A stretch of DNA of 64,000 nucleotides from a virus. The translations under genes were made by a program, and so were the position numbers. The notes below the pieces were generated by a model. It ran no database searches. It was given only the letters and a program-made list of their open reading frames with translations, and was not told where the DNA came from. Of the stretch, positions 18,670-60,448 are shown piece after piece. Location of the stretch: the IMG/VR virus record IMGVR_UViG_3300042881_006586; one strand, written 5' to 3'. Positions within the stretch are counted from its first letter, which is position 1. Each line of letters starts with the position of its first letter.

Positions 18670-21342
18670 TTAAGCTGTTATTGAAACTGTTTGGGTAACT
18701 GTTCCATCAAAATACTGTAAATAATAATTAGTATCACTACTTCTTATTACTGTACAATTATACTCTGCATAAACATGAGTGGCTGTTGAAAAGTTAGTTG
18801 CTGATATTGGATATAGAATTTGATTATATTTGAAATAATCAACTATAGTATTATTAAAAAAATTATTACCAATAACATTATCATAACAGTCCACACCTAT
18901 AGTATTATTTGCAAAGCTATTACCAATTTTATTTCCTCTTAGAACACTTCCACCATAACCAAAAGAATTTCCAATTGTATTATTTCCGAAATTATCGCCA
19001 ATTATATTATAAGCAAAATCTTCTCCAACATTATTATCAAGAAAATTATTTCCAATTACATTGTTTCTAAATTCTGTTTCACTTTCATTTGAAACAAAGT
19101 CATGTCCAATATGGTTTTTGAAAAAATTACCTTCTGCAAGATTATTTTTAAAATCATTTCCAATAATATTATCAGTAAAATCATAACTTCCAATGAAATC
19201 CGAATTACCAATTGTATTATTGTCAAAATAATCTAAAATTTGGTTGTCGGCAAATACATTATAGATTACATTATCATTATACGCATTACCGATATGATTT
19301 CCATAGAACTCATCCCAAATCCAATTGTTATTAAAACCATTGCCTATGAAGTTTTTATAGAAATCGTCACGAAGAGCGATATAATTATCATTAAAACCAT
19401 TATTAATTACATTATTTTGAAAATCGTCAGTACCTGTAACATTATTTTCAAAGTTTTCTCCAATTTTATTTCTCCAAGTTTCACCATTAAATACGTTATC
19501 CGTAAAATATTCTCCAACTACATTTGCATAAAAACCTCTTCTTAAAGAATTGTTTTGGAAAGTACCACTGATTTGGTTTCTGTTGAACCAATTGTAAGTA
19601 GAGTTATTGAAACATCTGTCACCTAATTTATTAGAATAAGAATTGAAACCAAATACATTGTTTGCAAGAAGGAAGTCACTATTACTTAAATTACCTTGAA
19701 TGTAAAAAGTAGAGTAGTCTCCAATCCAATTATTAGTGGAAGTTACCTCGTCATTTAACTGTAATTCTTCTTGAGAACGGAAAGTAGTCATTTCTCTGTA
19801 TACGTCATCAATAATGTTGTTATTTTTATATTCGTAACTTCTATATCTTACAGAAAAATCTGTATAAATAAAGTTAGCTCCATCATAGATGTCATCACCG
19901 CCATCATCAATAGTGTTTTCTCCCTCATCATTTATATCTGCAACATCATTGAATAGATAAATGTCAGGTACAAGTGCTGTTAAAGTTGAATAGTTAGTAT
20001 TAAGTATATTTAAAGTATTTGCAATATTTGCACCTTCAACTAAATTAAGGTAAGCATCAACTAAGGCTTCAAAATCTGCATCCTCAAGTTTATCACCTGT
20101 TCCTCTTGAAGTAAGTAGGTAATGTATTTCAGTTACGCCTGTTGTTGCCAAGTTACTTATTTCATGAAAGTCATCAGTAGTTGAAGAATCATAAGTTTGT
20201 GAAATACCTGTACCATCACCATTTACAATAAATATTTGATTGATAGAAGGGTCATCTGCATCATACACTCTTTTAATAAAAGCAGTATAATCATTTCCAT
20301 TTACATTTGTTGTGTACTGATTAATGTCTGCAGTTCCATCTCCATCTGCTCCAATATTACCATCGATTCGGAAGAAATCAATTTCGATGTCTTTAGCAGC
20401 CATTACGAAAAGTCCTGCGTAGAGGTTTGTAAAATATTCTGAAGTACCAATACTTCCGCAAAAATAATTTACACCACTTTTAACTTGCCCATCCATAATA
20501 AAATCTCCAATTAAAGCTTCTTCATCATAAACAACAGGAGGGTCAGTCATTTGAGTGTGAGTATAAGGAATCTGTGATAGTGAACCTTCAGTTTGCGAGG
20601 TTGCTTTATAATATTTTTCTCCGCTAAAACTCTTATTTTCAACAGAAGTTACTACCATATCAGTTGCTGAATTGATTGTTAAAACTTTGTACCAATATTT
20701 ATCAACATAAATAACATCTCCTTCAATCAACTCATTTATAAAGTCTGTATCAATTCCTACTACAGTAATTTCATAACCTCCTGTTGTAGGAGTTGATACT
20801 GTTGTACTTGTAGTACCTGTTAATGGACTATCAAAATTATGAAAATAAGTTTTATAACGTTTGAAAAGAATTGTTCTGTGGTCGTAATCTGTACGATTGT
20901 TCCACTCATCAATTCTTTCAGTAATTCTACCATAGGCATCACCACTTGTAGATTCAGTTGTATCAAAGAAAACATCATATTTGATTTTATCATTAGGATA
21001 TTTAGGTTGATATGCATCAGGAGCAAGAGTGTTTTCTGATGTAGCCATAACAATTATTGGCTCTATATCTGCTTCTTTATAAGTACCATTAGTACTATTT
21101 CCATTAGCATTATAATCAGGTTGGTCATAACAAGTTCTAAAATCTGTTATGATGTAATGTGAACCTGTAATTAAAGCTGAATTATCAATTAATTTTGTTA
21201 ATGTTTCATAAGTAACTTCAATTGCATTTGCAAATGCTTTTGCCGAATTCAAAGTGAACTTTTGAGATATACCGCCTGTTTGGGTATAAATCTCTTCAGC
21301 ACCATTTAAAGTTGGTCTTGTAGGAAAATTATTTGGTTTCAT
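18670..21342 (-). CDS. Asn-rich beta-helix tail fibre/spike paralog 1
   Basis: MKPNNFPxRPxL N-terminus, NxIG repeats, YLQYFDGT C-terminus. Confidence 0.65.
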   Translation of the reverse strand: MKPNNFPTRPTLNGAEEIYTQTGGISQKFTLNSAKAFANAIEVTYETLTKLIDNSALITGSHYIITDFRTCYDQPDYNANGNSTNGTYKEADIEPIIVMATSENTLAPDAYQPKYPNDKIKYDVFFDTTESTSGDAYGRITERIDEWNNRTDYDHRTILFKRYKTYFHNFDSPLTGTTSTTVSTPTTGGYEITVVGIDTDFINELIEGDVIYVDKYWYKVLTINSATDMVVTSVENKSFSGEKYYKATSQTEGSLSQIPYTHTQMTDPPVVYDEEALIGDFIMDGQVKSGVNYFCGSIGTSEYFTNLYAGLFVMAAKDIEIDFFRIDGNIGADGDGTADINQYTTNVNGNDYTAFIKRVYDADDPSINQIFIVNGDGTGISQTYDSSTTDDFHEISNLATTGVTEIHYLLTSRGTGDKLEDADFEALVDAYLNLVEGANIANTLNILNTNYSTLTALVPDIYLFNDVADINDEGENTIDDGGDDIYDGANFIYTDFSVRYRSYEYKNNNIIDDVYREMTTFRSQEELQLNDEVTSTNNWIGDYSTFYIQGNLSNSDFLLANNVFGFNSYSNKLGDRCFNNSTYNWFNRNQISGTFQNNSLRRGFYANVVGEYFTDNVFNGETWRNKIGENFENNVTGTDDFQNNVINNGFNDNYIALRDDFYKNFIGNGFNNNWIWDEFYGNHIGNAYNDNVIYNVFADNQILDYFDNNTIGNSDFIGSYDFTDNIIGNDFKNNLAEGNFFKNHIGHDFVSNESETEFRNNVIGNNFLDNNVGEDFAYNIIGDNFGNNTIGNSFGYGGSVLRGNKIGNSFANNTIGVDCYDNVIGNNFFNNTIVDYFKYNQILYPISATNFSTATHVYAEYNCTVIRSSDTNYYLQYFDGTVTQTVSITA

Positions 21343-21374
21343 AGTGTGTTTTTTTTATATAAATATATGTATAA

Positions 21375-21408
21375 AACAAAACCTCTGAATTTCTTCAGAG
21401 GTTTTGTT
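21375..21408 (-). terminator. intrinsic terminator, near copy of 18629-18658
   Basis: aacaaaacctctgaa-tttc-ttcagaggttttgtt (GAAA loop on the minus strand). Confidence 0.85.
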
Positions 21409-21415
21409 GTTATTT

Positions 21416-21661
21416 TTATTTAATCATTTTTAGATTGTGTTTTTCAAGAAAGTCTTTAGGCTCAGAAATTTCCATAGTAGTAAATTCTCTTTTCGCCATA
21501 AGTTTATCAGCTTTCTTTTGGTCTACAACCATTGTACAGAAGTAATGTGTTGCAGGTTTTTCACCTGATTGTGACAACTCAATTGTTAAAATTTTATTAT
21601 TATCTTCTTTTTGTCTTGCTTCTTCAATGCGTGAAGCATCACATAAAATACATATTCTCAT
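21416..21661 (-). CDS. small hypothetical protein (possible fibre-associated chaperone)
   Basis: 81-aa ORF immediately downstream of fibre paralog 2. Confidence 0.55.
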   Translation of the reverse strand: MRICILCDASRIEEARQKEDNNKILTIELSQSGEKPATHYFCTMVVDQKKADKLMAKREFTTMEISEPKDFLEKHNLKMIK

Positions 21662-21688
21662 TTTATTAGATTTTTATTTTTATAATTG

Positions 21689-23599
21689 TTAAGCATCTAC
21701 TGCAACATATTGATTTGTAGTTCCATCAAAATATTCTAAATAATCATTGTTATCATTACCTCTTAATAATGTACAGTTATAACTTCCATAAACATGTGTT
21801 GCACCTGAAAAGTTTATTGCATTCATTACAACAGTAACATTATTAAATTGAAAATCATCTACTATTATATTATTTATAAAATTATTAGTAATAACATTAT
21901 CATAGAAATCTTGACCTATGGTATTACCTTGGAAGTTATTTCCAATTTTATTACCTTTTCCACTTGCTCCGCCATAACCGAAATTATTTCCGATAGTATT
22001 ATTATTAAATATATTAGCAATTTGATTATAACCAAAGTTTTCTCCTATGTTATTAGAAAAAGTGTTATTTCCAATGACATTATAAGTAAAACTATCTTCA
22101 GTTCCATTTGAAACAAAGTCATTTCCTATTTGATTATGTGTAAATTGTCCTAATGTTGAATTACCTTTAAAATTATTTCCAATTACGTTATCTTCAAAAA
22201 TTCCTGCACCAATATCTTCAATATCACCAATAGTGTTATTATTAAAATCATTAGAAATTTTATTATCATAAAAATCTTGATAAATTTCATTGTTATTGAA
22301 ACCATTGCCAATAGTATTATCCTCAAAATTTCTAAAGATGGTATTATTTTCAAATGAATCACCGATTTGATTACGGTCAAAATCATATGTCGAACTACTA
22401 TCTATCCAATTGTTGGTAAAATCGTTGCCAATTCGGTTATTTCTAAAATCAAAATCAGTATTAATAATGGTATTATTCGCAAAGTCCTCACCAACATGGT
22501 TATATTGAAAGTCTGCTGTAATTAGATTATTAGTGAATCCATTTCCGATAACATTTCCATCAAAATCATTATTAGTAATATTGTTATAACAATAATTTCC
22601 TATTGTATTATTGTTACAATCGTCATTAAAAGTATTGTTATAAAAACCATTACCAATGTTATTGTTGTTGTACTCCCCATCTTTGAAAACATTATTTGCA
22701 AGAAGAAAATCACCTTCATTATCTTCAAGGTGTAAATTACTGTAATCTCCAATATAATTATTTATTACGCCATCACCAATTGCATCACCGAATGTGGTAT
22801 ATAAATTAAAATCTGTTGGGTCATCAACATTACTTCTATAGTAACTGTCATAACTTCCTGCGTTAGTAGTATAAAATTCACCGCTTCCACCAAAGGAATT
22901 AATAGATAATCCGCTTACTAACATAAGCGTATCTGATGAAATAGAATCAATTATAAAAAATACTTCATCTGAATTAGGATATGCAATAACATCTCCTATA
23001 GTAAGAGCTGTAAAAAACGTACCGAAACCATTAACAGTTCCATCATTTAATAATTCCATTGTACCTGTTTCAGGAGTTTCTCTACTGAAGTAATAAAATC
23101 TATATCTTTTGAATTCAATAGTTCTATGGTCATAATCTGTACGATTGTTCCACTCATCGATTCTTTCAGTTATTCTTCCAAATGCAACATCTCCTGATTC
23201 AGTTGTAGAATAGTTGATATCATATTTTATTCTATCATTAGGATATTTCAGTTGATATGCATCAATAGCAAATGTATTAAAACTTGTAGCCATTACTATT
23301 ATTGGTTCAATAGCTGCTTGAATATATGTAGAACCTGAAACAATAATGCTGTTTTTATTTTGGTCATAGTCGGGTCTATTGTAACATGTTCTAAAATTAT
23401 TTATAATGTAATGTGAGCCTGCTATTAAAGCTTGATTTGGAATTAAATCATCTTTTAATTCAGCATAAGTAACTTCAATTGCATTTGCATATTTTTTAGC
23501 TTCTTCTAAAGTAAACTTTTGAGATACGTTGGCTGTTTGCGTATAAAGTTCTTCAGTTCCATCCAAACTTGGTCTTAAAGGAAAATTATTTGGTTTCAT
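21689..23599 (-). CDS. Asn-rich beta-helix tail fibre/spike paralog 2
   Basis: Same N- and C-terminal motifs and NxIG repeats as paralog 1; shared ERIDEWNNRTDYDHRTI block. Confidence 0.65.
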   Translation of the reverse strand: MKPNNFPLRPSLDGTEELYTQTANVSQKFTLEEAKKYANAIEVTYAELKDDLIPNQALIAGSHYIINNFRTCYNRPDYDQNKNSIIVSGSTYIQAAIEPIIVMATSFNTFAIDAYQLKYPNDRIKYDINYSTTESGDVAFGRITERIDEWNNRTDYDHRTIEFKRYRFYYFSRETPETGTMELLNDGTVNGFGTFFTALTIGDVIAYPNSDEVFFIIDSISSDTLMLVSGLSINSFGGSGEFYTTNAGSYDSYYRSNVDDPTDFNLYTTFGDAIGDGVINNYIGDYSNLHLEDNEGDFLLANNVFKDGEYNNNNIGNGFYNNTFNDDCNNNTIGNYCYNNITNNDFDGNVIGNGFTNNLITADFQYNHVGEDFANNTIINTDFDFRNNRIGNDFTNNWIDSSSTYDFDRNQIGDSFENNTIFRNFEDNTIGNGFNNNEIYQDFYDNKISNDFNNNTIGDIEDIGAGIFEDNVIGNNFKGNSTLGQFTHNQIGNDFVSNGTEDSFTYNVIGNNTFSNNIGENFGYNQIANIFNNNTIGNNFGYGGASGKGNKIGNNFQGNTIGQDFYDNVITNNFINNIIVDDFQFNNVTVVMNAINFSGATHVYGSYNCTLLRGNDNNDYLEYFDGTTNQYVAVDA

Positions 23600-23604
23600 T
23601 TTTT

Positions 23605-23877
23605 TTAGTTTAAATAATTGTTTATTTGTGTTAGGATAAAATCTTTGATTTCAGTTTCGTTATCTGATTTGATAACAGTCATTGGAAGCTTATCATTTGA
23701 TTCAATATCATTTTCAGTATATTTGAACCAAACGGTCAATTTTCTTCCTGAAATAGTTGTCAAAGATTTGAATCTCAAATCCTTTCTTTCTATTTCTTTT
23801 TCAATATTGAAGACAGTTTTTGTTTGAGGATGTCCCATCCCATATATTTCTATTGATTTTTCTATTAAGGTTTTCAT
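23605..23877 (-). CDS. small hypothetical protein
   Basis: 90-aa ORF between fibre paralogs 3 and 2. Confidence 0.55.
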   Translation of the reverse strand: MKTLIEKSIEIYGMGHPQTKTVFNIEKEIERKDLRFKSLTTISGRKLTVWFKYTENDIESNDKLPMTVIKSDNETEIKDFILTQINNYLN

Positions 23878-23893
23878 TTTATTTGTTTAATTT

Positions 23894-25981
23894 TTAAGCT
23901 GTTGGAGAAACATAAGTTGCAGTTGTGCCTGAAAAATATTCTAAGTATAAATTTGTATCATTTGATTTAAATATTCTACAAGTGTAATCTGCATAAACAT
24001 GAGTTGCTGCTGAGAAATTTGTACTACCTATTGAATAATCTATTAGGTTTCTTTGGAATAAATTGCCAATTGTATTGTTGTTAAATGTACTGATATTACG
24101 AATATTGTTAGCAAAGAAATTATTGCCTATAGCATTTGAACTGAAACTATCACCAATAATGTTTGATTGAAAAAAAAGTCCTATTGTATTAGTAGCAAAA
24201 GTATTACCAATTGTGTTCAATAAAAAATTAATTCCAATTGTGTTATTTTGGAAACCATTACCAATTGCATTATCACTAAAAAGAGAACCAATTGTATTAC
24301 CTTGGGAGCTATTACCAATTGTATTATTATTACAATTGATATCAATAGTGTTATTTACAAAACTGTTACCAATTGTGTTATTATTAAAACCATTTTGAAT
24401 ATCATTGTTATCAAATTCATTAGCAATTGTGTTGTCTCTGAAATTATCTCCAATATTATTAGCTGAAAAATTATTAGCAATTGTGTTATTATTAAAATTA
24501 TCTCCTATTGTATTACTATTGAATTCATTACCAATATTATTGTCTTGAAAATCATCTGCAATATTATTCGAACCAAAATCTTTTTGAATGTTATTCTTAG
24601 TAAAATTAGCTCCTATTTCATTAGAGTTAAAATCTTTTGAAATATTATTATATAAAAATTGAGTTAAAATATTATTATCACTAAAACCATTTTCAATAGT
24701 ATTGTATGAAAAATCACTGCCAATAGTATTAAATGCAAATTCTGAACCTATATTATTACTATTAACATTGTTTCCAATAGTGTTAAAAAAGCAGACACCA
24801 CCTATAACATTATCGAAAAAATCCGTACCTATTGTACTATATGAAAAAAAACCATTTAATTGATTAAAATAAAAATCTCCTAAAAAGACTACATTATCAC
24901 TAAAACCTCTATTTCCAATCAATTCTGCTCCACCTGTATCATTCCATTTTATATTAAAAGCATCATATCCATCGTTGCCAAAGCATTTAAAGTCCTTATA
25001 GTTTCCTGTTGTACCTTGACCTAAATAATTATCTCCAATCCCCCAATAACCTGTTCCCAAAGAAGCAGTAATACCACTCAAATCAACTTCAAATCTTCTA
25101 TATTTTCTTCCACGAAAATCAAAGGGGGCATCGATATTTCTATAGGTGTCAATTCTTCTTGTTATCCAACCATAAGCATTTTCTATTTCATATATTGTCT
25201 CAACAGATAATGTATCTGCATCATAATTAAGAAAATCATTATAATCTAAATCTATAAGAACTACTTTAAATCCATCTTCTTCGATTCTTATTCTTGACAT
25301 TGCTTTTGGATATGCAAAATCAGGGTCATCGGATGTGTAAGGATATTGAGCTGTTGAAATATTAGGAGTTAAAGGTTCAAATGCACCATCTTGATAATAG
25401 GTTGAACCGCTGAATTCTGCATATACATAAAAATAATGCCCAAAAAGCGCAGGGTAGTTTGTAGGCATAGTAAAATAAACATCTGTTCCATCCCATTGAA
25501 GGTCAAATCCTGAAATTGCAGTTAAATCAGGAAGATTATTTCCATTATAAATTGTAAACGGTACACCTATTTTATCAGTATAAGGTTCATATTGAACAAT
25601 ATCCCCTTGAAAAGTTTCTGAATATCCTATTGGAGAAATTTCATAAGAAGAAATAGCTTGAAGAAGTAAAACTTCAGTTTCACCTTCATAAACTTCTCTT
25701 GGAATAAAATTAGGGTCATTTGGAGTTGGATTATTATAAGCAATGTCTGCTCCATTTAAAAAGTTGACCGACCTATAGTCAGTCAGCCTATACCATTGAC
25801 CTGCAACCAATTCACCATTTACAATTTTATCGTAAAGTTCAGAATAAATGATATCAGTAGGATTAAGTATAAATTCTTTAGCAGAATCTAAAATAAATTT
25901 TTGTGGAATATTATTTGTTTGTGTGTATAATTCTTCAGTACCATTCAAACTTGGTCTTATTGGGAAATTATTGGGTTTCAT
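23894..25981 (-). CDS. Asn-rich beta-helix tail fibre/spike paralog 3
   Basis: MKPNNFPIRPSL start, long run of ~11-aa F..NxIG repeats, YLEYFSGT end. Confidence 0.65.
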   Translation of the reverse strand: MKPNNFPIRPSLNGTEELYTQTNNIPQKFILDSAKEFILNPTDIIYSELYDKIVNGELVAGQWYRLTDYRSVNFLNGADIAYNNPTPNDPNFIPREVYEGETEVLLLQAISSYEISPIGYSETFQGDIVQYEPYTDKIGVPFTIYNGNNLPDLTAISGFDLQWDGTDVYFTMPTNYPALFGHYFYVYAEFSGSTYYQDGAFEPLTPNISTAQYPYTSDDPDFAYPKAMSRIRIEEDGFKVVLIDLDYNDFLNYDADTLSVETIYEIENAYGWITRRIDTYRNIDAPFDFRGRKYRRFEVDLSGITASLGTGYWGIGDNYLGQGTTGNYKDFKCFGNDGYDAFNIKWNDTGGAELIGNRGFSDNVVFLGDFYFNQLNGFFSYSTIGTDFFDNVIGGVCFFNTIGNNVNSNNIGSEFAFNTIGSDFSYNTIENGFSDNNILTQFLYNNISKDFNSNEIGANFTKNNIQKDFGSNNIADDFQDNNIGNEFNSNTIGDNFNNNTIANNFSANNIGDNFRDNTIANEFDNNDIQNGFNNNTIGNSFVNNTIDINCNNNTIGNSSQGNTIGSLFSDNAIGNGFQNNTIGINFLLNTIGNTFATNTIGLFFQSNIIGDSFSSNAIGNNFFANNIRNISTFNNNTIGNLFQRNLIDYSIGSTNFSAATHVYADYTCRIFKSNDTNLYLEYFSGTTATYVSPTA

Positions 25982-48988: not shown

Positions 48989-50779
48989 GTGAGTAATATT
49001 AAAAAAAATACAAACAAAATATTTGATATAAAATTAAACAATTGCAACTATTGGGATTTTTACCTCTCAATGGATGCATCAAGTGATTGTTTTGTTTGTG
49101 ATAATTTAATTACAGGAGATGTAGTAGCTACTTTTGATTTTGATAATATTTCAGGGTTGTGTAGTACTGTAACATGGGAAAATGCAACTTCTTTCAATAA
49201 AGACCTTTGTGATATTGGATTAACAGGTTATGATAATCGTTTTGTAGATTGGTACACAGGGGAAACTTTTAATCCTTCAGGTGATACAACTTTCTGTGTA
49301 AAAAGAGTTTCAGGAGATACATACTGTTATGAAATGAATCATATGCCTGCTTATGGAGTAGAACCTGAACATATTCAATTCTGTGGTGGTTTTTTCCAAG
49401 GATTTTACAGGCTTCATGGGTATGATTATGATGTTCTTCCGAATATGTATTATAAAGGTTGGACAAAAGAATTTTGGCTCAAAAGAACCGATTGCCCTTC
49501 AGGAGAAACTGTAACTATTACAGGTGAAACAATTACTTATGAAGAAACCGAATTAAATGTTATTGAAACCATTGAAATTTGGCAAACAGATGTCATATCA
49601 GGAGGTACTTGTACAGATAAATTTCAATTGAATGAAGTTTATCCTGATAACAAAGGGATATTTTATTTTTGGGGATTGAGAGCTGAAAATAAGTTTTGTG
49701 CCTTTTCACCTTTTTCAGAATTGACAACTTGTGAAGGATTAAGTCTTGCTCCAAAGATAACAGAAATTCCTTTTGAACCTGATGTCAATCCGTTTTTATA
49801 TTATACAAGAAGAACTGCTTATTGTACAGATGAGCCTAATTCAACTGCAGAATTGATTGATTGCTGTGATGGTATTATTAATAATGCTTTAGCTTTCAGA
49901 GTTACAGATGATGGAGAAATTGGATTGAGATTGATGACAACTACAGGTGAATGTATGTTAGTTGGGGATTCAATAATGTTCTCAGGAAGTCCTGTTGTTG
50001 AAGAATTTTATTCTAAAAAGAATCTTGTTAAAAAAGACAAATGGTATCATGTTACATATAGATTTGAGCCATATGAAAGACATCACTGTATAGGTTATAG
50101 AGTTAGTGCAGGTATCCTTTCAGTTTTTGTAGATGGATTTTTGAAATTGAAAATCGATGGATTTCCTGAATTTATTCCTTATGAATTAAATGAAATTCCT
50201 GAGAAGCAATTGGGAGTTCCATTTAATATAAGTCTTGGAGGTGGAACACAGGGTCTTTTGGAAAGTTATACTTTTTCAGGTCTTACTGAATCTTTTGATT
50301 TAACAGGATATACTTTATGTAATTATATTTCAAAGGTAATTGCACCATGTACTTTTAATGGGATTGTAATAAACGGTGAAAGGATTGTAAGCCCAAAATT
50401 CACAGTTCATGAGGCTGATTTAATAAAAGCTTGGTTAGAAATGCATGTCAAAAGTATGGGTGAAATTGAAATAGAACCTTATTATATGGGTGATAGGGAT
50501 TCTATAAAAATAACATTCAATGCAGTTATCGATAAATTAGACTATATATTATTAGAAAAAGGAGTTTCTTGTATAGTTCAAACTAATTGTATAGATGTGC
50601 CTCCTTTTAATGGTAGATGTGGCTATTTGGAAGATAACTTTGCAGGGACATTTATTGGAGGAATTGGTGAGTTTAGACTGCATGATAGACCTCTTTGTTT
50701 GCAAGAAATTAGATGTAACTTTGAATTAGAAAAAGCAAAATATAATCGTAATAGAGACAGAATAGAATGCGAAATATGA
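48989..50779 (+). CDS. Cys-rich LamG/concanavalin-like virion protein
   Basis: WYHVTY..LSVFVDG..FIGGIGEFRLHDRPL LamG-like motifs; 25 Cys; GTG start. Confidence 0.65.
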   Translation: MSNIKKNTNKIFDIKLNNCNYWDFYLSMDASSDCFVCDNLITGDVVATFDFDNISGLCSTVTWENATSFNKDLCDIGLTGYDNRFVDWYTGETFNPSGDTTFCVKRVSGDTYCYEMNHMPAYGVEPEHIQFCGGFFQGFYRLHGYDYDVLPNMYYKGWTKEFWLKRTDCPSGETVTITGETITYEETELNVIETIEIWQTDVISGGTCTDKFQLNEVYPDNKGIFYFWGLRAENKFCAFSPFSELTTCEGLSLAPKITEIPFEPDVNPFLYYTRRTAYCTDEPNSTAELIDCCDGIINNALAFRVTDDGEIGLRLMTTTGECMLVGDSIMFSGSPVVEEFYSKKNLVKKDKWYHVTYRFEPYERHHCIGYRVSAGILSVFVDGFLKLKIDGFPEFIPYELNEIPEKQLGVPFNISLGGGTQGLLESYTFSGLTESFDLTGYTLCNYISKVIAPCTFNGIVINGERIVSPKFTVHEADLIKAWLEMHVKSMGEIEIEPYYMGDRDSIKITFNAVIDKLDYILLEKGVSCIVQTNCIDVPPFNGRCGYLEDNFAGTFIGGIGEFRLHDRPLCLQEIRCNFELEKAKYNRNRDRIECEI

Positions 50780-50783
50780 AAAT
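50737..50783 (+). repeat. 47-bp direct repeat copy 1 (3' end of 48989 gene + next start)
   Basis: 45/47 identical to 51442-51488. Confidence 0.95.
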
Positions 50784-51438
50784 ATTAATAACTGAAGAAC
50801 AATATAAACTTCTAAGGGAAGTTGATAAAGATGGAATTGGGACTATTGATGATATTAATAAGAAGTTTAATTATAAAATAGGTAAGATGATTGGTTACGG
50901 TAAATATAGTTTTGTTTTTGAATACGAGGATGATAAGGTTGTTAAGATAAAGAATAATAATAATAATAATTATAATGATTATGGTTTTTTTAAAACATAT
51001 GATATAGGGGAATTTACTTTTAATGAAGATGTATTAACAGTAAATGAAAAACATTTAGCAGTTTATAACGATAAGTTATATTATGTTATAATGGAAAAAT
51101 TAAATATAGATAAAGATTTAATTAATAGCTTAGATACTGTTGAATTTGTTATTGAAAGCTTTATGGAGCATGCTAAAATAAAAAATACTACAACTAAACT
51201 GAATTGGCTGTATCAAAATTTTGAAAATGATGATATTTTAATGAAGCTTATTGATTTTTCTAAAGAAAAAATATTTAAATACCAAAGAGAAATGGATGAA
51301 TTTATTTCAATTATGACAGACCTTTATCAATTATTTTTAAAAATGAAGCAAAAAGGTTTAAATTGGAGGGATATGCATAGTGGAAATTTTGCATACAATT
51401 CGAATATGGAATTAACACCATTTGATATGGAATTTTAA
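50776..51438 (+). CDS. protein-kinase-like enzyme with MKILITEEQY leader
   Basis: IGYGKYSFVF Gly loop, VVKI, WRDMHSGNF catalytic loop, terminal FD; start revised to 50776 (ATGA overlap). Confidence 0.75.
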   Translation: MKILITEEQYKLLREVDKDGIGTIDDINKKFNYKIGKMIGYGKYSFVFEYEDDKVVKIKNNNNNNYNDYGFFKTYDIGEFTFNEDVLTVNEKHLAVYNDKLYYVIMEKLNIDKDLINSLDTVEFVIESFMEHAKIKNTTTKLNWLYQNFENDDILMKLIDFSKEKIFKYQREMDEFISIMTDLYQLFLKMKQKGLNWRDMHSGNFAYNSNMELTPFDMEF

Positions 51439-51441
51439 AGA

Positions 51442-51488
51442 AAAATATAATCATAATAGAGACAGAATAGAATGCGAATTATGAAAAT
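51442..51488 (+). repeat. 47-bp direct repeat copy 2
   Basis: aaaatataatcataatagagacagaatagaatgcgaattatgaaaat. Confidence 0.95.
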
Positions 51489-53589
51489 GAAATCCTTAAT
51501 AGAAATTTATAACTTAGTTTTAGAATCAAAAAAAACTGAAGAACAGTCTTTAAACATATTGAATAAAGTCAATGTTCCTGATGCAAATAAAATTCTTGAA
51601 GATTTAAAATCAATCGACAAGTCTGATAATCAAAAGAATTTGCCTTTTATGGCAACTATTGTCACATGGAATCTTAATGATTCAAATATTATTAATAATA
51701 TGAATTCTATCTTTGAAAAGTATAATGAATTGTTAAAAAACAATAACATAAAACCTATGCTATTAACCCAAAATAAAATTACTATAGGTAATGATACTTT
51801 CAATAATTTTCTTAAATTGGCTGAACATATTGATGGAATACATACTGATTTTAGTTATATACAGAAAAGAAAAAAAGAGTCATTTATAGTATATGAAAAT
51901 GAAGATACTCCTTTGTTTAGTTCAAATGGAATAGATGTTTACGATGGAACTGAAGTTGGAAAATGTATAAAATACACTCAAGGGAGATTAACAGGTAAAA
52001 AATATAGTTTCTGTATTGGTCAACCAATGAATACAATATATCAATCATATAGAGATAAAAAAGTATCTACATTTTATTTTATTGTAGATAGAAATAGATT
52101 TAAAACAAATTCGGATGGTTCAGTAAATCTTGATGACCCATTACATATTGTTGTATTTGATATGACTAAGAATGGAATTCAATTGACAGATGCAGATAAT
52201 AAAACAGGAAATATTGCGAAATATGGAACAAATGTTCAAAGATATGTTTCCTATCTGAAATCAAAAGGAATCCCTGTAGATAAGCTTGTAAATAAACCTA
52301 AAACTCCTGAAGAGGAAAAAGAGGATAAACTTCTTGGTAAATCAAATAAATCATTAGAATGGTTTATAAAACTTCCATATGAGATGAAATCAAAATATAT
52401 AGGAAGAGGAAATGAGCTTACAGATAAACAATTTGATATCATATTTAAAGATAAATATTTATTAAATCAATATGTAAATATTGGTTCAGCTTTGCCTGAA
52501 TATCAGTTTAAAAAGTTATTTTATAATTTGCCTGCATTAAAATCTTATATAAGAACAAGGCAAATTGCTGTTAAAAATGGTAGTTCATATGAATTTTATG
52601 AACAAAATTTAACAGACGAGCAATTTGATATCATAATTAAAAATGATGATATATTAAAACAATATATAAATACAGGTTCAGCCATACCTGAATATCAATT
52701 TAAAAAGTTGTTTTATAATTTGCCTGCATATAAAACTTATATGAAAGCAAGAGCAATTGCCAATCAGAAATATTGGGATTATAATGATTATGAAATAAAT
52801 TTAACATCTGAACAATTTGATATTTTATTAAAAGATGAAGATGCATTAACATATTATTTTAATACAGGTGCTGCATTATCAGAAGATAATTTTAAAATAA
52901 TATCAGGGATACCATCATTATATAATACATATATGATAGCAAGAGGAAATATGATTAAAATTCCTTATACAGTTAATTATGATAATCATACTGATAATTA
53001 TACAAATAATGCTGCAATTAGTTATTATAAATCATATGAACTACCATTTGAATATATTGATAAATTAAAAAATATGGTTGAAAGAGGATTAGATTCTGCA
53101 CATAAGTATGCATCTAAATTAAAATTAGACGAAGAACAATTTATAGAAAAATATTATAAAAATATAACAAAGGCAAGAAAATATTATATAGGTTGGGTAG
53201 GAGAATTAGCGGATTTGTATAATGAAAGTTCAATTTTTTTAGAAGATAAAAATATTTCAGAAATAACAGATGATTTACTTAAATTAAAAAAAGCTGAATA
53301 CTTAAATTTAAGAAATAATAATATATCTTTTATACCTAAAGGGTTTTCTAATTTAAAATTAGAAGTTCTAAGTTTAGATGATAACAATTTATCTGAAATT
53401 TCTGAAGAAATATGTAATATGAAAACATTAATAGAGTTAACTTTAAGAAATAATAATATTTCAAAAATACCTGATTCTATAAAAAATCTAAGAAGATTAG
53501 AAGATTTAGACCTTAGAGGTAATCCTTTACCAAATGAGGAAATACAAAAAGTAAAGAGATTATTAAGAAAAACTGATATAAGAATATAA
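51487..53589 (+). CDS. LRR-containing protein, paralog A (MKSLIEIYNLVLE leader)
   Basis: C-terminal LxxLxLxxNxL/I repeats; three 64-aa internal repeats; N-terminus identical to the 53988 gene. Confidence 0.75.
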   Translation: MKSLIEIYNLVLESKKTEEQSLNILNKVNVPDANKILEDLKSIDKSDNQKNLPFMATIVTWNLNDSNIINNMNSIFEKYNELLKNNNIKPMLLTQNKITIGNDTFNNFLKLAEHIDGIHTDFSYIQKRKKESFIVYENEDTPLFSSNGIDVYDGTEVGKCIKYTQGRLTGKKYSFCIGQPMNTIYQSYRDKKVSTFYFIVDRNRFKTNSDGSVNLDDPLHIVVFDMTKNGIQLTDADNKTGNIAKYGTNVQRYVSYLKSKGIPVDKLVNKPKTPEEEKEDKLLGKSNKSLEWFIKLPYEMKSKYIGRGNELTDKQFDIIFKDKYLLNQYVNIGSALPEYQFKKLFYNLPALKSYIRTRQIAVKNGSSYEFYEQNLTDEQFDIIIKNDDILKQYINTGSAIPEYQFKKLFYNLPAYKTYMKARAIANQKYWDYNDYEINLTSEQFDILLKDEDALTYYFNTGAALSEDNFKIISGIPSLYNTYMIARGNMIKIPYTVNYDNHTDNYTNNAAISYYKSYELPFEYIDKLKNMVERGLDSAHKYASKLKLDEEQFIEKYYKNITKARKYYIGWVGELADLYNESSIFLEDKNISEITDDLLKLKKAEYLNLRNNNISFIPKGFSNLKLEVLSLDDNNLSEISEEICNMKTLIELTLRNNNISKIPDSIKNLRRLEDLDLRGNPLPNEEIQKVKRLLRKTDIRI

Positions 53590-53622
53590 AAATTAAAGGC
53601 ATTAATTAAAACCTATAAAATA

Positions 53623-53985
53623 ATGGAATTTTTTATTAAACAAAAAGCCACTCTTCCTTATTTGGAATTAGAATTAGTTGAAGATGGGTATAGCGACAAA
53701 AGTAATTTCTTTGATAAACTTCAAAATGCACTTGTAACATTTTCTATGGAAAGTGTTGAAGGCTGCGTTAAGAATATTGTCTGCAGACCTATGGAAGTTA
53801 TCGAAGATGATTGCGGTAAATACTGTGCTAATTGTCAAAAGAAATTCAAAATTATTTACAAATGGAGAGAAAGAGATACTTTGAATAAAGGTAGGTTCTT
53901 AGCAAATATTGAAATTGATTTCCTTGATGGATGTGGTAAATTAATTGTACCAATACGAGAAAAATTATATGTAAGTATTATATAA
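53623..53985 (+). CDS. Cys-rich BppU-like Ig-fold putative baseplate protein
   Basis: FFIKQKATLPYL..VTFSM..IYKW..DT..GRFLANIEI..LIVP pattern; 6 Cys. Confidence 0.55.
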   Translation: MEFFIKQKATLPYLELELVEDGYSDKSNFFDKLQNALVTFSMESVEGCVKNIVCRPMEVIEDDCGKYCANCQKKFKIIYKWRERDTLNKGRFLANIEIDFLDGCGKLIVPIREKLYVSII

Positions 53986-53988
53986 AAA
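53896..53988 (+). repeat. ~93-bp direct repeat copy 1 (3' end of 53623 gene)
   Basis: Matches 55620-55712 with 3 mismatches. Confidence 0.95.
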
Positions 53989-55583
53989 TGAAATCCTTAA
54001 TAGAAATTTATAACTTAGTTTTAGAATCAAAAAAAACTGAAGAACAAGCACAAGATATACTGCTAAAATCTAAATTTTCTGAAGAAGAAATTTTTAAAAT
54101 AATAAATGAATTAAAAAAAATTGATACTTCAGAAAATCAAAAATACCTCCCAATGATGGCAACAGTTTTTTCTTGGGGAGAAAAAAATTATGAAACAATT
54201 AAAGATATTTTTGATGATTATGATGAATTATTTTTAAATAATAATATTGGTAAAATGTTTTCATCTAATATGAGAATTAAAATCTTAGAAAAAGATGGTA
54301 AAGAAAAGGAATTTAACGATTTTCTAAAATTTACTGAATATATTCACGGAATTAGAGATAATGCTTATAAAAAGAAATATGGTTATTCTTATGAAGAATA
54401 TAAATCTGAAGATACCCCTATATTAAGTTCAAATGGAATAGATATTTATGAAGCTAATAGTGTAGGGAAATGTATAAAATACACTCAAGGAAAATTAACA
54501 GGTAAATATTATAGTTTTTGTATTGGTCAACCAATGAATACAATGTATCAATCATATAGAGATAAAAAAGTATCTACATTTTATTTTATTGTTGATAGAA
54601 ATAGATTCAAAACAAATTCAAATGGGTCTGTAAATCTTGATGACCCATTACATATTGTTGTATTGGATGTTACATCATACGGTATTGAATTAACAGATGC
54701 AAATAATACAACAGGAAAAGTGGCTGAATATGGTACAAATGTTGATGGATATGTTTCATATTTAAAATCAAAAGGAATCCCTGTAGATAGACTTGTAAAT
54801 AAACCAAAAACTCCTGAAGAAAAAGAAGAAGAAGAACTTCTTGGTAATACAAATGATTCTTTAGAGTGGTTTATGCAATTACCTTATGAAATGAAATCAA
54901 AATATATAGGAAGGGGGCATAAGCTTACAGATGAACAATTTGATATTATTTTATCTGATAAAAAATTATTAAATCAATATTTAAATATAGGTAATACTTT
55001 ATCTGATAGTCAATTTAAAATAATAGAAAATATTCCTTCTGCATTGAATAGTTATATAAAAAGTAGAAAAATTGCTATTTCAAATGGAGAAAAAGTTTCT
55101 TTAGTTGAATTGGATTATTTGCCTTTAGAAACTATAGATGATATTAAATTAATTGATTCTAATCATCCTTTTAGTGATTTTGGAAATAAAAAATTAAAAG
55201 AAATACCTGATTCTATTAGAAATTTAAGGAATTTAATAACTTTAAAATTTATATCTAATGGTATTGAAGAAATACCTGATTGGATAGATGAGTTAAAATA
55301 TTTATCATATATATATTTATCTAATAATAAAATACAGAACTTACCTGAATCAATTACTAATTTAAAATATTTAACAGAATTAGATTTGTCAAATAATAAT
55401 ATTAGAGAATTACCTAATTCGTTCAAAAAATTAACCTCTTTAAAAAAATTAATCCTTTTTGGAAATGAAATCCCTGAAGAAAAAATTATAATTTTAAAAG
55501 AATTATTACCAACGTGCGAAATAGTATATGAACAAAAAGATTTTAATCAATGGAAAAGAAAACAAAGAAGGAGGACAATTTAA
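53988..55583 (+). CDS. LRR-containing protein, paralog B
   Basis: Shared core YSFCIGQPMNT..STFYFIVDRNRF; C-terminal LRRs (LTELDLSNNNIRELP). Confidence 0.75.
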   Translation: MKSLIEIYNLVLESKKTEEQAQDILLKSKFSEEEIFKIINELKKIDTSENQKYLPMMATVFSWGEKNYETIKDIFDDYDELFLNNNIGKMFSSNMRIKILEKDGKEKEFNDFLKFTEYIHGIRDNAYKKKYGYSYEEYKSEDTPILSSNGIDIYEANSVGKCIKYTQGKLTGKYYSFCIGQPMNTMYQSYRDKKVSTFYFIVDRNRFKTNSNGSVNLDDPLHIVVLDVTSYGIELTDANNTTGKVAEYGTNVDGYVSYLKSKGIPVDRLVNKPKTPEEKEEEELLGNTNDSLEWFMQLPYEMKSKYIGRGHKLTDEQFDIILSDKKLLNQYLNIGNTLSDSQFKIIENIPSALNSYIKSRKIAISNGEKVSLVELDYLPLETIDDIKLIDSNHPFSDFGNKKLKEIPDSIRNLRNLITLKFISNGIEEIPDWIDELKYLSYIYLSNNKIQNLPESITNLKYLTELDLSNNNIRELPNSFKKLTSLKKLILFGNEIPEEKIIILKELLPTCEIVYEQKDFNQWKRKQRRRTI

Positions 55584-55600
55584 CGAGTTACCTTTTTCAT

Positions 55601-55712
55601 TTTAAACAAAAATATAAGATTCTTAGCGAATATTGAAATTGATTTCCTTGATGGGTGTGGTAAATTAATTATACCAATACGAGAAAAATTATATGTAAGT
55701 ATTATATAAAAA
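55601..55712 (+). pseudogene. composite scar: 18-bp copy of the polB 3' end joined to a ~93-bp copy of the 53623-gene 3' end
   Basis: tttaaacaaaaatataag at 55601-55618 equals 56113-56130; 55620-55712 matches 53896-53988. Confidence 0.85.
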
Positions 55713-55739
55713 AAACCGCTCAATTGAGCGGTTTTTTTT
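55708..55739. terminator. bidirectional intrinsic terminator
   Basis: aaaaaaaaccgctc-aatt-gagcggtttttttt between convergent units. Confidence 0.9.
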
Positions 55740-55741
55740 GT

Positions 55742-56065
55742 TTAGTGAAATTTGATAAATTCTTCATCATCACCATAAATTTGTACACCTTTGCGCAAAT
55801 ATTCATCATTTTTTAAATCATATATAGATACAATTTCAGGTCTTTTAGATTCCATTTTTCCTTCAAACATATCATTAAGTATATCTTCTGCTTCAAAAAA
55901 AACATCACGAGAATCTGTAAATTTTTCATATATAAAAAAAGTATCATTCAATATAGATTCTTCATTACGATAAGAATATTCTACCTCATAATAAGGAGTT
56001 TTATTAGTTTCCTCTTTAATAATTCTTTTTACAAGCTGTCTGAGTTCATTTAATGTTATTTTCAT
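55742..56065 (-). CDS. hypothetical protein with MKITLNELRQLVKRIIKEE leader
   Basis: Own TATTTATT motif at 56082-56089. Confidence 0.65.
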   Translation of the reverse strand: MKITLNELRQLVKRIIKEETNKTPYYEVEYSYRNEESILNDTFFIYEKFTDSRDVFFEAEDILNDMFEGKMESKRPEIVSIYDLKNDEYLRKGVQIYGDDEEFIKFH

Positions 56066-56113
56066 AGTATTATTTTTTAATAATAAATATTATTCAAAAT
56101 AAAAAAAAACCAT

Positions 56114-59100
56114 TTAAACAAAAATATAAGGTGGATTTTCATTGTCAATATAAAATTGTTCTCCAATGAATCTTATCAATTCTACTCCTGTATATATTTT
56201 TTCATTAGGATTCAAAATTGATTCATTTGAGAATTCTCTTACTTCTAAAGAATTACTATCAAATGTATACATTCTATCAACAAACACATCTTTATAATCA
56301 AAAGGTGAATTTGGTGAAAGGTTAGCCATATCCCAAAATTCATATTCTTCATCCGTGATAATCATCAGTTCATTCATATCTTGTTGTTTATCTTCTTTAC
56401 CATCAAGAGGATACCCATGAACCAATTGGATTTCATCATCAGTAAACCAAGCTCTTTCATTTGCTTCTCTTTTGTACATTTTGTTAGGAGAAGGTATTTT
56501 GCTTCTGATATCAGGATGGAATACAATCCATATCTGTTCCAAAGCCTTGTTTAGCTTATTGATATACTTCATTGCATTATACTTCATTTTTGCATCCAAT
56601 TTATCATTTGGTACATAAGAGCAATAAAGAACATCTTTTTCGGTAATTACTTCTATGATGGTGATTTCACCATCTTTTTTGGTTTTCTTTTTCTTTATTT
56701 TGAATTTGATAGCATCAACATCTAATATTGATTCTAAATTGGTTTGTTTTGATACCTTTGCCTTTTTGGTTAATCCGTTTATATCTGAAAATTTTTGAAA
56801 AGTTGAATTGAAAAAGAATGTATCTTCATTGTAACATTTTTCGATTACATTCTTTAAATTTTCTTTTCCATCACTCAAATATTTTTCAAGTTTTTTCTGA
56901 GCAATTTCCGCAGCTTTTTCTCCTACAATAAAATAACCGATAGTATCTTTAACAGTGGCTCTGTCAGCTTCTTCTGCAGCATCATTATCATTGATGTAAT
57001 AAATCCAATCCCCAATTTCTACTTGCAAATTATTTTTGACTGCAAGCTCCATATGAGCTTGTTTATTGTATCTTCCTTCAAAAACACCTTTTTTATAATC
57101 ATCTAATGCCTTTTTGACTTTCATTTTACTTGCAATCTTTCTTGCAATCAAATCTCCATTATAGATTTTTTTGATATAAGTGTAATAGGCATCCAAGAAT
57201 TTTGTAGGATTGTTCAAAAGCAAATCTAAAAGGTTGGCATCATAAAAATCTACGATATATTCACTTTGCTTTTTATTGACAAGTCCGCCTCCAACATGGG
57301 AAATTTTATACTTTCCTTTGGATTCTTTTACATAAGTGAAATTACCTTTAGAAAAATTGACACAGGAGACAGCAAATTCATCAATTGCAACACCTGTATA
57401 GCCAATCATAAATTTATCGTTGTATTCCGCCACGAAAGCCTCTATACCACTATAAGCTTTATCTTTTTCTGTTAACCAAGACTTGCCTGTGCCAACATAA
57501 GAATAATTTTCGATTCCTTTAGGAATAACAAAGTTTGCTCCATCTGTATGGAAATATACAATTTTAAACCCATCCTTACCGAAATATTTAATCATATGGC
57601 GCATATTCTGTCTACTTGCACATGTAATATGCCAAGCACTTTGAATATGGCAGAATGGAGAAACATCAGGAGCACCTAACATTCCATAGAAACTATTAAT
57701 AAGAATTTTCAATGGAAGCTGTTTTTTATCATAGAACTGCTCCATTTCGCTATTCTTTTCTTTCTTAGCTTTATTCTTCATGTCTTTATAATGAAGTCTA
57801 CTTCTAAGAGCATATTCAAGAACCGATTTGTACACATTTGTAATATCTATATCAGGATTTTTACAATGTGCCAAAAATGTTGCAGGATATTGAGAAGAAA
57901 AGTCGATTTTTACAATATCCTCATGATAACCTGAATCAACCATCCCAAGAAGCCCTCCTGTATATTTCTTAGGTTTTTCATAGTCAGGAATAGCTGCACA
58001 ATTCAAATATGACCAAGCTGATAATATCAATTTCCATACAGTCGCATTTCCTGTAGTTGAAACTTTCTCATAAGAAGTCGGCAACCATTTCGCAAGAGAA
58101 AATGTCGCTTGAGAATAAAGGCTATCGAGCAGATATGGTTCATCTAAGTCATCAGAAAGATATCGTTGAACAATATAAGAACCACTTACAGTTTGATGCT
58201 TGTCAAAATCAATATGCTTATAAAAACTTTTTACATCTTTTAAGTTTTCAATCAATTCTTTACAATTGGAAACAAAATATTTCCAAAGAACCGTATTTTT
58301 TAATTCTGAACCAAAATTTTCAATAGGAACAACCAATTCATCATAATCTACAATCTTTTCATAGATTTTTTCGAATTCTGTATCTAATAAATCCCCATCA
58401 GAAATCAATTTGCCATTTTCATGGATTTGAATTGTAAATACATTGAAGCATTTATCTAAGAGAGGAATATCATTATATTCATTTGAACATCTAAGATATA
58501 TTTTTTTGATATTTCCGTAAAAATGTCCTTTTTCACCCTCATGTATTTTTTCAGAAGAAAAAAGAGATTCTTTTGAGATTTCTTTGCTTGATACAAAGTA
58601 AGAACCATCCTCATCATTGAAATAATAAGGTCTTTTATCTGAAGAAATTTTTCCAATTAAATCCCCTTGAACATAAACACGATTCTTCTTAGCAAGATTG
58701 GCATGTTTGATGTTATCTTTCAATTTGGCGTTAGGCAAAGACTTATCTTGTTCTGCAGCTCTTTTTACTGCAAACATAACATCACAGAAGTTTTTACCAA
58801 ACATTTTAGTTTGAGTATATCTTTCTGTTGTACCACCAATTTTTACTACTGAATTTTCTATTTTATAGTAAGTAAAATAGTTATATACCTTTCCATAAGT
58901 TTGATAAGCTTCTGCTACAGTATTTCTTATGTATTGTAATGCAGTTTTTTTACCTGCTTCACCATTTCTTCCATTTTCTTCTGCAACACATCCTAAAAGC
59001 TCCAATCGCTTTTCCATAAAAGGAAAATCGAAATCTTCACCATTATAAGTTAGAATTAAATCAGGGTCAAGTTCTGCGATTATTTTATATGATTCTGTGA

Positions 59101-60448
59101 GAATTGCAATTTCTTCCTTGTCATTATCTGCACTCAATAATTTCAAATATCCATCGGTAGTCTTGATACCTATTTCGAAAATTCTACCAAGTTCAGGTCT
59201 TAGTGCAGCTATTTCAATTTCCTCATTACCTTTTTGAGCCTTTGTTTCAATATCTAATATTAGAACATTTAAATCCTCATAGTTTTCAATCCCTTTGAAA
59301 AGCCTTCTGCCTGTTTGAATCATATATTGCTCAAGAGGCTGCAAAGAATAGATTTGGGATTCGATATTGTAAGTAAAGGAACAACCTAAACTTTGGATAT
59401 AATATTTTAAATCGTTCTTATCTAAGTTGTCATCAAAAGTATAACAATCGATAACAAGTTTATTTAATTTATCTTCATCCAATTTTATTTTGAAAGCTTG
59501 CTTGATTGTAGGCAAATTTTCAATTAGTGCATTATAAACACTACTAAAGTCTTTATCAATTAAATCATTAATAAAGGTCTTATTTATTTTGAACGCTATG
59601 GATGGGTATATCTTTTTGTAAAGATTGATAATTGTATCAAAATTTACTGAATCTTTTGTAAATGGGTTAAAATAATCTCTAAACCTATAAAGACTTATAT
59701 AGAAATAAATTAAACTGTTTAAATCTTCAGAAATATAGTTTACAAACTCTTTTAGCTTGAAATCATCCAAATAAATGTTTCCTCTTGAAGAAAGACCTGC
59801 TTCTTTGAAGAAGTCAACTAAATTCACATAAGAACCAACGATTTTTCTTTGGAAGTAAGGATTATCACTGATGACAGGATTTTCTCTTTGGGATTTGATG
59901 GTAATTTTATACTTAAATCCCTCTTCAATACGTTTTACAATTGAATCATCAAAAGAAGTTATCTGTTCTTCGATTTGAATTCCGTATAATTTTTGCTTTT
60001 TGGTTACAATCGCAGACCATTCTTCAAAACTTTCAATTTTATATCTAATAACATATTTGTCATCAGTTTTTTCAATTATTCTTACTTCGTTGCCATCGAT
60101 ATCTTTTACTTTTCCATTTGGCAAAAGTACTTGATTTTTAGACACCTTTCTCGAATCTAAAGTAACTATATTGTATCTAAAAAAAGATGAAGTTTTGAAT
60201 TGCTTACTCCATACAAAGGGGACTAATCCATTCTTATGAGTTACTCTTGGAGTACCATTTTGAAAGGCTTTACAAAAGATAATATCGACATCGTTATTAT
60301 TTCTTGATGTTTCTATTGAACGTATGCCCAACATCTCATCACCAAAAATTTCTTTTTCATAACTACCATTCAAAAAATCAACAATTACTTGTTCATTGAT
60401 TGTAGGTTGAGTTCTTTTACTTTTTGGTTTGAAAATATTGAATTGCAT
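56114..60448 (-). CDS. polB: family B DNA polymerase with large insertions
   Basis: ExoI LDIET, ExoII YNGEDFDFP, ExoIII YLSDD, motif A DFSSQYP, motif B KQLPLKILINSFYG, motif C YFHTDG. Confidence 0.92.
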   Translation of the reverse strand: MQFNIFKPKSKRTQPTINEQVIVDFLNGSYEKEIFGDEMLGIRSIETSRNNNDVDIIFCKAFQNGTPRVTHKNGLVPFVWSKQFKTSSFFRYNIVTLDSRKVSKNQVLLPNGKVKDIDGNEVRIIEKTDDKYVIRYKIESFEEWSAIVTKKQKLYGIQIEEQITSFDDSIVKRIEEGFKYKITIKSQRENPVISDNPYFQRKIVGSYVNLVDFFKEAGLSSRGNIYLDDFKLKEFVNYISEDLNSLIYFYISLYRFRDYFNPFTKDSVNFDTIINLYKKIYPSIAFKINKTFINDLIDKDFSSVYNALIENLPTIKQAFKIKLDEDKLNKLVIDCYTFDDNLDKNDLKYYIQSLGCSFTYNIESQIYSLQPLEQYMIQTGRRLFKGIENYEDLNVLILDIETKAQKGNEEIEIAALRPELGRIFEIGIKTTDGYLKLLSADNDKEEIAILTESYKIIAELDPDLILTYNGEDFDFPFMEKRLELLGCVAEENGRNGEAGKKTALQYIRNTVAEAYQTYGKVYNYFTYYKIENSVVKIGGTTERYTQTKMFGKNFCDVMFAVKRAAEQDKSLPNAKLKDNIKHANLAKKNRVYVQGDLIGKISSDKRPYYFNDEDGSYFVSSKEISKESLFSSEKIHEGEKGHFYGNIKKIYLRCSNEYNDIPLLDKCFNVFTIQIHENGKLISDGDLLDTEFEKIYEKIVDYDELVVPIENFGSELKNTVLWKYFVSNCKELIENLKDVKSFYKHIDFDKHQTVSGSYIVQRYLSDDLDEPYLLDSLYSQATFSLAKWLPTSYEKVSTTGNATVWKLILSAWSYLNCAAIPDYEKPKKYTGGLLGMVDSGYHEDIVKIDFSSQYPATFLAHCKNPDIDITNVYKSVLEYALRSRLHYKDMKNKAKKEKNSEMEQFYDKKQLPLKILINSFYGMLGAPDVSPFCHIQSAWHITCASRQNMRHMIKYFGKDGFKIVYFHTDGANFVIPKGIENYSYVGTGKSWLTEKDKAYSGIEAFVAEYNDKFMIGYTGVAIDEFAVSCVNFSKGNFTYVKESKGKYKISHVGGGLVNKKQSEYIVDFYDANLLDLLLNNPTKFLDAYYTYIKKIYNGDLIARKIASKMKVKKALDDYKKGVFEGRYNKQAHMELAVKNNLQVEIGDWIYYINDNDAAEEADRATVKDTIGYFIVGEKAAEIAQKKLEKYLSDGKENLKNVIEKCYNEDTFFFNSTFQKFSDINGLTKKAKVSKQTNLESILDVDAIKFKIKKKKTKKDGEITIIEVITEKDVLYCSYVPNDKLDAKMKYNAMKYINKLNKALEQIWIVFHPDIRSKIPSPNKMYKREANERAWFTDDEIQLVHGYPLDGKEDKQQDMNELMIITDEEYEFWDMANLSPNSPFDYKDVFVDRMYTFDSNSLEVREFSNESILNPNEKIYTGVELIRFIGEQFYIDNENPPYIFV

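Follow-up and report, generated by a model that had tools for sequence, protein, structure and literature searches.

The stretch of DNA analyzed here (hereinafter the window) comprises 64,000 nucleotides (nt) of the IMG/VR virus record IMGVR_UViG_3300042881_006586, the source of which is a 163,922-bp contig of an uncultured, AT-rich, T4-like giant phage. Our subject is a slot between two convergent core genes of this phage, gene A and polB, in which two unrelated cargo genes, LRR-B (named for its leucine-rich repeats, LRRs) and X on the minus strand, are separated by orphan copies of the 3′ ends of both core genes. The layout runs A, LRR-B, a spacer, the joined orphans B′ and A′, a hairpin, X and polB (Table 1), and almost certainly records one illegitimate join that subsequently spread through homologous recombination. 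A further core gene, P, defines a second slot with A, and a neck/adaptor gene (PF26809 in relatives) adjoins polB. Gene A itself matches no Pfam or PHROG family; an Atlas feature match of 0.94 to a cluster of which 12% is PF10651 offers only a lead that it is possibly a BppU_N-like virion protein. No cultured phage is close, the best polB matches being ~25% identical. We compared about 60 homologous loci from related assemblies (L001–L062), including those of a sister species (~73–80% nucleotide identity to the window, measured in P and polB) with contigs of up to 272–276 kb.

A self-BLAST of the window recovers the 3′ end of A a second time ahead of X, with 92 of 96 positions identical (E-value 3e-38). 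This recurrence had been noted in the original prediction and is borne out, its extent corrected to 96 nt with the adjacent codon included; the differences are likewise as described there, namely three synonymous changes (53895 AGG/AGA, 53904 GCA/GCG and 53931 GGA/GGG) and a valine-to-isoleucine change (V-to-I, at 53947). Immediately before A′ and overlapping it by the dinucleotide AG lies B′, which self-BLAST finds to be exact, just as had been claimed, and which comprises the last four polB codons, two bases of a proline codon, the stop and one base beyond. The Markov probability of such a copy is ~1e-9 per site, so that ~1e-5 copies are expected over the two strands of a 5-kb region. The junction occurs only once, and neither the window self-alignment nor a search of 60 genes shows a repeated att-like motif at it. 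Beyond A′, the hairpin with its flanking A- and T-runs is likely a bidirectional terminator between the convergent units, and the 17-nt spacer before B′ is identical in all relatives carrying LRR-B.

Table 1. Features of the P–A and A–polB slots, in window coordinates.
Feature	Position	Strand	Basis or remark
Core gene P	48989-50779	+	open reading frame (ORF)
P 3′ end, intact copy of second repeat	50732..50783	+	self-alignment
Cargo gene K, P–A slot; kinase-like motifs by eye (HxxN ... D-x-E-F)	50767..51438	+	ORF
P′, orphan copy of P 3′ end, 49/52, joined to K stop	51437..51488	+	self-alignment
Cargo gene LRR-A, 700-705 aa	51484..53589	+	self-alignment, Pfam
Gene A, conserved 120-aa core gene, left slot border	53623..53985	+	ORF, 51 homologues
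A 3′ end, intact repeat copy, 96 nt	53893..53988	+	window self-BLAST
Cargo gene LRR-B, 531 aa	53988..55583	+	Pfam LRR_8/LRR_14
Spacer, 17 nt, resembles right arm of A–polB terminator	55584..55600	.	compared with L033; weak fold
B′, exact orphan copy of polB 3′ end, 18 nt	55601..55618	-	self-BLAST
Illegitimate junction B′/A′, 2-nt AG overlap	55617..55618	.	same in window phage and sister species
A′, orphan 3′ end of second A allele, codons 91 to stop, without start codon	55617..55712	+	window self-BLAST, alleles
Perfect 16-pair hairpin, A-run before, T-run after	55706..55741	.	-20.4 kcal/mol, z-score -6.9
Cargo gene X, 107 aa	55742..56065	-	family of sister-species X2
X–polB intergenic region, ATATTTAT motif at 56083-56090	56066..56112	-	99% identical in sister-species scar allele
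polB 3′ end, intact 18-mer copy	56113..56130	-	self-BLAST
polB, family B polymerase	56114-60448	-	Pfam DNA_pol_B

The same junction is present in four further assemblies of the window phage from other samples (L017, L024, L025 and L026), all of them identical or almost identical to the window; in L017, the region from P to X lies on one contig. It also appears in four loci with a sister-species polB (L039, L050, L051 and L052), whose spacer, B′ and start of A′ are identical to those of the window. In one of these, L039, A is also of the sister-species type and A′ is of the window-species type. Behind the junction in these four, which come from four samples, stand a different cargo gene, X2, and another A′ allele. 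The junction is thus identical in nine assemblies from two species. Because it recurs in the sister species with different cargo and a different A′ allele behind it, it is best read as one inherited event that was later spread by homologous recombination. The original prediction had envisaged a means of stacking cargo genes at a fixed slot; shared descent with the sister species speaks for a single event and not for a routine mechanism.

These observations also bear on the notion that the layout is an assembly chimera of two strains, an objection raised beforehand, or the work of a dedicated site-specific cassette system. Two scars do lie within 5 kb of each other (the second is described below), and scarred and unscarred strains share samples: sample 3300034013 holds both a scarred (L052) and an unscarred (L057) allele, and the contigs L040 and L056 break off precisely where B′ ends, a pattern that a branch between the two alleles would produce. 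However, the recurrence in nine assemblies from two species answers the chimera objection, the 2-nt overlap is far below the k-mer length of an assembler, and the two scars have no motif in common. Moreover, a 184.5-kb relative that is 68% complete yielded no tyrosine or serine recombinase, which is suggestive only. We accordingly regard both possibilities as barely credible. As the original prediction held, nothing points to an integrase. A RecA-family protein was not matched in the partial relatives either. Pattern scans of IMG/VR DNA returned no matches, whether for the end of A, for the junction or for the X leader, and a scan with the polB C-terminus confirmed no locus.

Across the relatives, the A–polB gap is a slot whose accessory-gene content varies. 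It is empty but for a terminator in many loci (L003–L013, L015, L019, L021, L033, L036, L038 and L042–L047); among these, L043, whose two flanks are each 98% identical to those of the window, has LRR-A before A and nothing after it. LRR-B stands alone in the gap of L001, L027–L032, L034, L041 and L057, all from the sister species, and other cargo occupies it in L002, L016, L035 and L058–L062. The LRR-B-only loci supply the A–LRR–polB donor layout that had been predicted and dispose of the objection that no relative might have an LRR gene next to polB. The 18-mer of B′ is matched at 15 of 18 positions in L001-type genomes and at all 18 in L041 and L057, where, behind an identical spacer, it runs on into polB. 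This continuation is found in neither scarred allele; hence, L041 and L057 are not deletion products of a scarred allele but true parental layouts. Since LRR-B and its spacer are, apart from one patch, 97–100% identical between the species, as against only 73–80% for P and polB, the sequences argue that the LRR-B cassette crossed species recently, accompanied by short stretches from the ends of the genes on either side.

Several relatives show peculiarities of their own around these genes. In the more distant L002 (3151–7043), P has the opposite orientation, and three tandem LRR genes with ~84% mutual identity come after it. L058, in which the gene order around P and polB differs, has three similar elements of 140–165 nt (1147–1286, 1734–1896 and 3764–3971) before small minus-strand genes; these consist of an upstream region plus a shared gene leader and look like cassette boundaries of the PeSL type. 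In L044 (2–1498), gene P is called as two pieces of 58 and 384 aa, which may reflect a frameshift or an assembly error.

The A′ alleles allow the history of the scar to be examined further. All three synonymous states of A′ are present in intact A alleles, and the A′ haplotype at codons 91/94/103 occurs whole in the intact alleles L021 and L042. The V-to-I change differs in this respect: its column is invariant in 21 A proteins and the state is found in none of the 18 distinct intact alleles, for which reason it probably arose after loss of function. Hence, the proposal that A′ is a once-functional allele holds for the three synonymous states, but not for the V/I difference, which is probably a later mutation. 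The A′ of L039 differs from the intact allele L058 at only 1 of 78 nt and from the window A′ by synonymous changes, except for the private isoleucine of the window and the last codons; in L039, X2 extends into the latter, deleting the stop and terminator of A′. The A′ differences are almost only synonymous and match living alleles, which is not how a pseudogene would drift. Hence, either the two copies come from different parents, or at least one of them exchanged sequence with a functional A once the junction existed.

Taken by itself, the structure A–LRR-B–B′/A′–X–B is the expected product of four processes: an out-of-register crossover, integration of a circle, entry of a piece carrying X, and tandem duplication followed by a swap of cargo. 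Our preferred reading, which we consider fairly probable, is one misaligned crossover between two related linear genomes, involving neither a circle nor an integrase. Related phages exchange slot cargo through homologous recombination within the ends of the neighboring core genes, as the layouts and allele patches show. In this setting, an A–LRR-B–polB genome or fragment would have joined once, out of register, to one of the A–terminator–X–polB type. The first parent would have been broken 18 nt into its polB end and the second within A, at codon 91, the two having only 2 nt in common at the join. An ordinary homologous crossover elsewhere would then have completed the exchange. Such an event between co-infecting relatives would be classed as unequal crossing-over or homology-facilitated illegitimate recombination, and its product retains A and polB intact along with both cargo genes and a strong terminator between these. 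The block later moved across the species boundary, and the half to the right of the junction (A′ allele, terminator and X or X2) was exchanged again; the sharing of blocks is directly visible, and A′ and the X leader are the likely crossover points. The junction is likewise seen in the assemblies, as are the parents in part.

Three points weigh against this reading. No unscarred A–X–polB genome was found, since the scar is present in every contig with X or X2 for which there is DNA, and the prior expectation that both A–LRR–polB alone and A–X–polB alone would be met is thus borne out only for the former; likewise, the designation of X as the resident gene is unproven. Indirect signs of such a parent are seen in the distant L035, which has an X2-like gene in the gap and no scar, and in L058/L059, which have part of the X-type intergenic sequence before polB, again with no scar. 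Further, the 2 nt shared at the join are fewer than the 6–10 usual in T4. Finally, later recombination blurs the allele linkage, as in L001, where LRR-B occurs together with GGG at codon 103.

The original prediction had instead invoked a circle, here bounded by A codon 91 on one side and a point 18 nt into polB on the other, that formed from an LRR-B donor and entered an A–X–polB genome by single crossover in A. This gives exactly the observed layout, and in the haplotype of L044/L046/L047, an AGA-GCG A allele occurs together with a window-type polB end, placing both junction partners in one haplotype. Further, T4-type phages do form mini-circles, which they appear to package (PMC2839356), and one junction followed by two different downstream cargo genes could reflect two integrations of one circle. 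However, a linear misaligned crossover or an X-bearing newcomer gives the same product; neither a circle nor an A–X–polB resident was observed, and the known PeSL circles form between pre-existing repeats and not via a 2-nt join. The two-integration version would need an extra transfer to account for the different species types of A and A′ in L039. Codon 103 adds to this: it is GGA in the window A and in the LRR-B-linked A of L039, L041, L056 and L057, and GGG in both A′ copies. Since GGA is in A and not in A′, this linkage would confine any crossover of the circle to the first 38 of the 96 nt, whereas the linear crossover needs none within the 96-nt A end. Because of the blurring seen in L001, which breaks the linkage, we count this argument as weak, amounting to a factor of ~2–3. 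In sum, a circle is neither seen nor needed, and we judge this route unlikely. An extended version, in which slot-spanning circles with cargo and both core-gene ends form repeatedly and pass between co-infecting species, stacking cargo without an integrase, and in which their orphan ends become recombination anchors that divide one slot into sub-slots open to separate exchange, appears quite unlikely. Its anchor half finds some support in the A′ alleles, which differ almost only synonymously and match intact ones; its circle half finds no support.

Alternatively, X could be the newcomer, with an A′–terminator–X circle or fragment having entered an A–LRR-B–polB genome via the 18–21-nt polB end and duplicated that end. 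In keeping with this, A–LRR-B–polB is common, unlike A–X–polB, which was not encountered; B′ and B show no difference in either species (over 18 nt in the window and 21 nt in L039), and the window-type sequence of L039 stops ~25 nt into polB. Nevertheless, 18–21 nt is little homology for a single crossover, and a long polB anchor would make this scenario equivalent to the linear one; the polB-end patch, moreover, differs between L039 and L041. We consider it highly improbable.

Tandem duplication of the slot within one genome by microhomology, with the cargo then replaced by homologous recombination, would draw on a process known from T4, which amplifies segments by microhomology (PMC9391042). 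A 9-of-10 match between A (53886–53897) and polB (56127–56138) straddles the junction position, though it may be due to chance; the observed join is 4 nt short of a crossover there, and a join at this match followed by a 4-nt loss would give the observed sequence. Against this, none of the loci compared carries the same cargo twice at the slot, and more steps are needed, making it a remote prospect.

Having weighed these alternatives, we find the misaligned crossover to be most like homology-facilitated illegitimate recombination, in which linear DNA integrates with one homologous and one illegitimate end (PMC3240628). The likenesses include one homologous anchor plus one illegitimate join, the addition of cargo with the old gene kept, the orphan fragment left behind, the rarity of the event and the spread of the array by homologous recombination. 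Such recombination, followed by spread through ordinary recombination, has been proposed to generate the orphan-module arrays of the Vibrio type VI secretion system (T6SS) and of Rhs/contact-dependent inhibition (CDI) loci (PMC5361080). In contrast to those arrays, the present case concerns a phage slot between convergent core genes, with both gene ends duplicated and cargo that is no effector–immunity pair. In T4, head-to-tail junctions arise at unique microhomologies of 6–10 bp during dmd-tifA amplification (PMC9391042). Our junction shares with these its uniqueness, the head-to-tail joining of segments and the apparent lack of an integrase, but T4 joins at 6–10 bp and repeats the same genes, whereas here 2 bp join different genes and alleles. 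Thus, a retained microhomology of the T4 kind is absent, only AG being shared and the nearby 9-of-10 match not being retained intact, as are tandem copies of the same genes, the two sub-slots holding unrelated ones. The PeSL mini-circles of RB49/phi1, shown by inverse PCR, form between repeated promoter–terminator elements (PMC2839356, PMC4122927). There, as here, accessory ORFs between conserved genes are swapped via short shared boundary sequences and general recombination, but the boundaries in our slot are core-gene ends and coding leaders and include no repeated promoter–terminator element. Indeed, PeSL-type repeats flanking the cargo are absent: the self-alignment shows only gene-end and leader repeats, and the terminators vary between alleles.

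Integron cassette arrays also accumulate cargo genes in tandem at a fixed place. Our slot resembles them in this, but no integrase turned up in the 68%-complete relative, and the slot has no attC-like repeat and a single unique junction; the finding is of neither the PeSL nor the integron kind. The recombination mechanism itself is already known, and its mark is found here in one junction with a 2-nt overlap between non-allelic positions. The initial observation stands, with unequal crossover as a probable and ordinary mechanism that is unusually well recorded. What the locus offers is a natural record of a lytic giant phage gaining an accessory gene while keeping the old one. Public assemblies, in some cases from one sample, document a slot without cargo, a parent with only the LRR gene, the product with both genes stacked and, in the sister species, a descendant that was shuffled again; the added value lies in this near-complete natural series and in the inheritance of one junction across species. 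The record suggests that a gene end orphaned in a single rare event can later serve as a crossover point.

A second scar lies 2.2 kb upstream of A, between the stop of K and LRR-A, and recurs in L017, L018 and L053–L055. Here an orphan 3′ end of P follows K, with no remnant of a downstream gene. The last codons of K (M-E-F), which match the start of A over 10 nt, were considered as such a remnant; however, K homologues at 45–52% identity end alike, and the match is evidently native to the K family and coincidental. K itself has no Pfam match. A 16-of-18-nt likeness between B′ and the K/P′ join, examined as a motif common to both junctions, is explained by the AT-rich coding sequence of P and polB. 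Among the 60 window genes searched, and leaving paralogue starts aside, nearby gene-end copies of at least 18 nt exist for P, A and polB only. No recurrent recombination-site motif was found at the cassette borders, which differ across relatives.

Turning to the cargo, LRR-B combines a shared 62-nt leader, a domain of unknown function and C-terminal LRRs. Its N-terminal domain is found in uncharacterized phage proteins, with PcfJ as a weak lead only. The 97–100% identity to the sister-species copies holds outside one 200-nt patch of 88–92%. Within this patch (54401–54600) some copies have LRR-A-like residues, which suggests an exchange between the paralogues. The first 62 nt of LRR-A (51484–51545) and LRR-B (53985–54046) are identical and end at a sequence coding for the motif T-E-E-Q, which is also found in K and other leaders of the P slot. 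Since the database protein P0097 fuses an LRR leader to a K body at this very motif, the cargo leaders probably also act as crossover points. Close relatives of LRR-A are located behind A in L016 and L058–L062, and the sequence after LRR-A in the window (53590–53622) appears to be the left part of the A–polB terminator fused to the P–A spacer; this suggests a transfer of LRR-A from the slot behind A into the P slot. For X, a single family of close homologues was found. X2 is a 157-aa protein that shares with X the upstream region and first 19 codons and is ~32% identical in amino acids overall. LRR-A, LRR-B, K and X all start with I/L-x-E leaders of the kind that T4 internal head proteins bear; judging from these leaders alone, the cargo proteins are probably head-packaged, injected accessory proteins.

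Two further features of the window lie outside the slots. Three paralogous genes at 18670–25981 have 27-nt asparagine-rich repeats and shared starts, and the terminator hairpin of 18634 recurs at 21382. Finally, the + strand of the window strongly avoids a set of short sites, namely CCGG (0 against 17 expected), CTAG (0 against 90), CCAG (0 against 96), CTGG (1 against 117), GATC (0 against 194) and GGCC (3 against 21).

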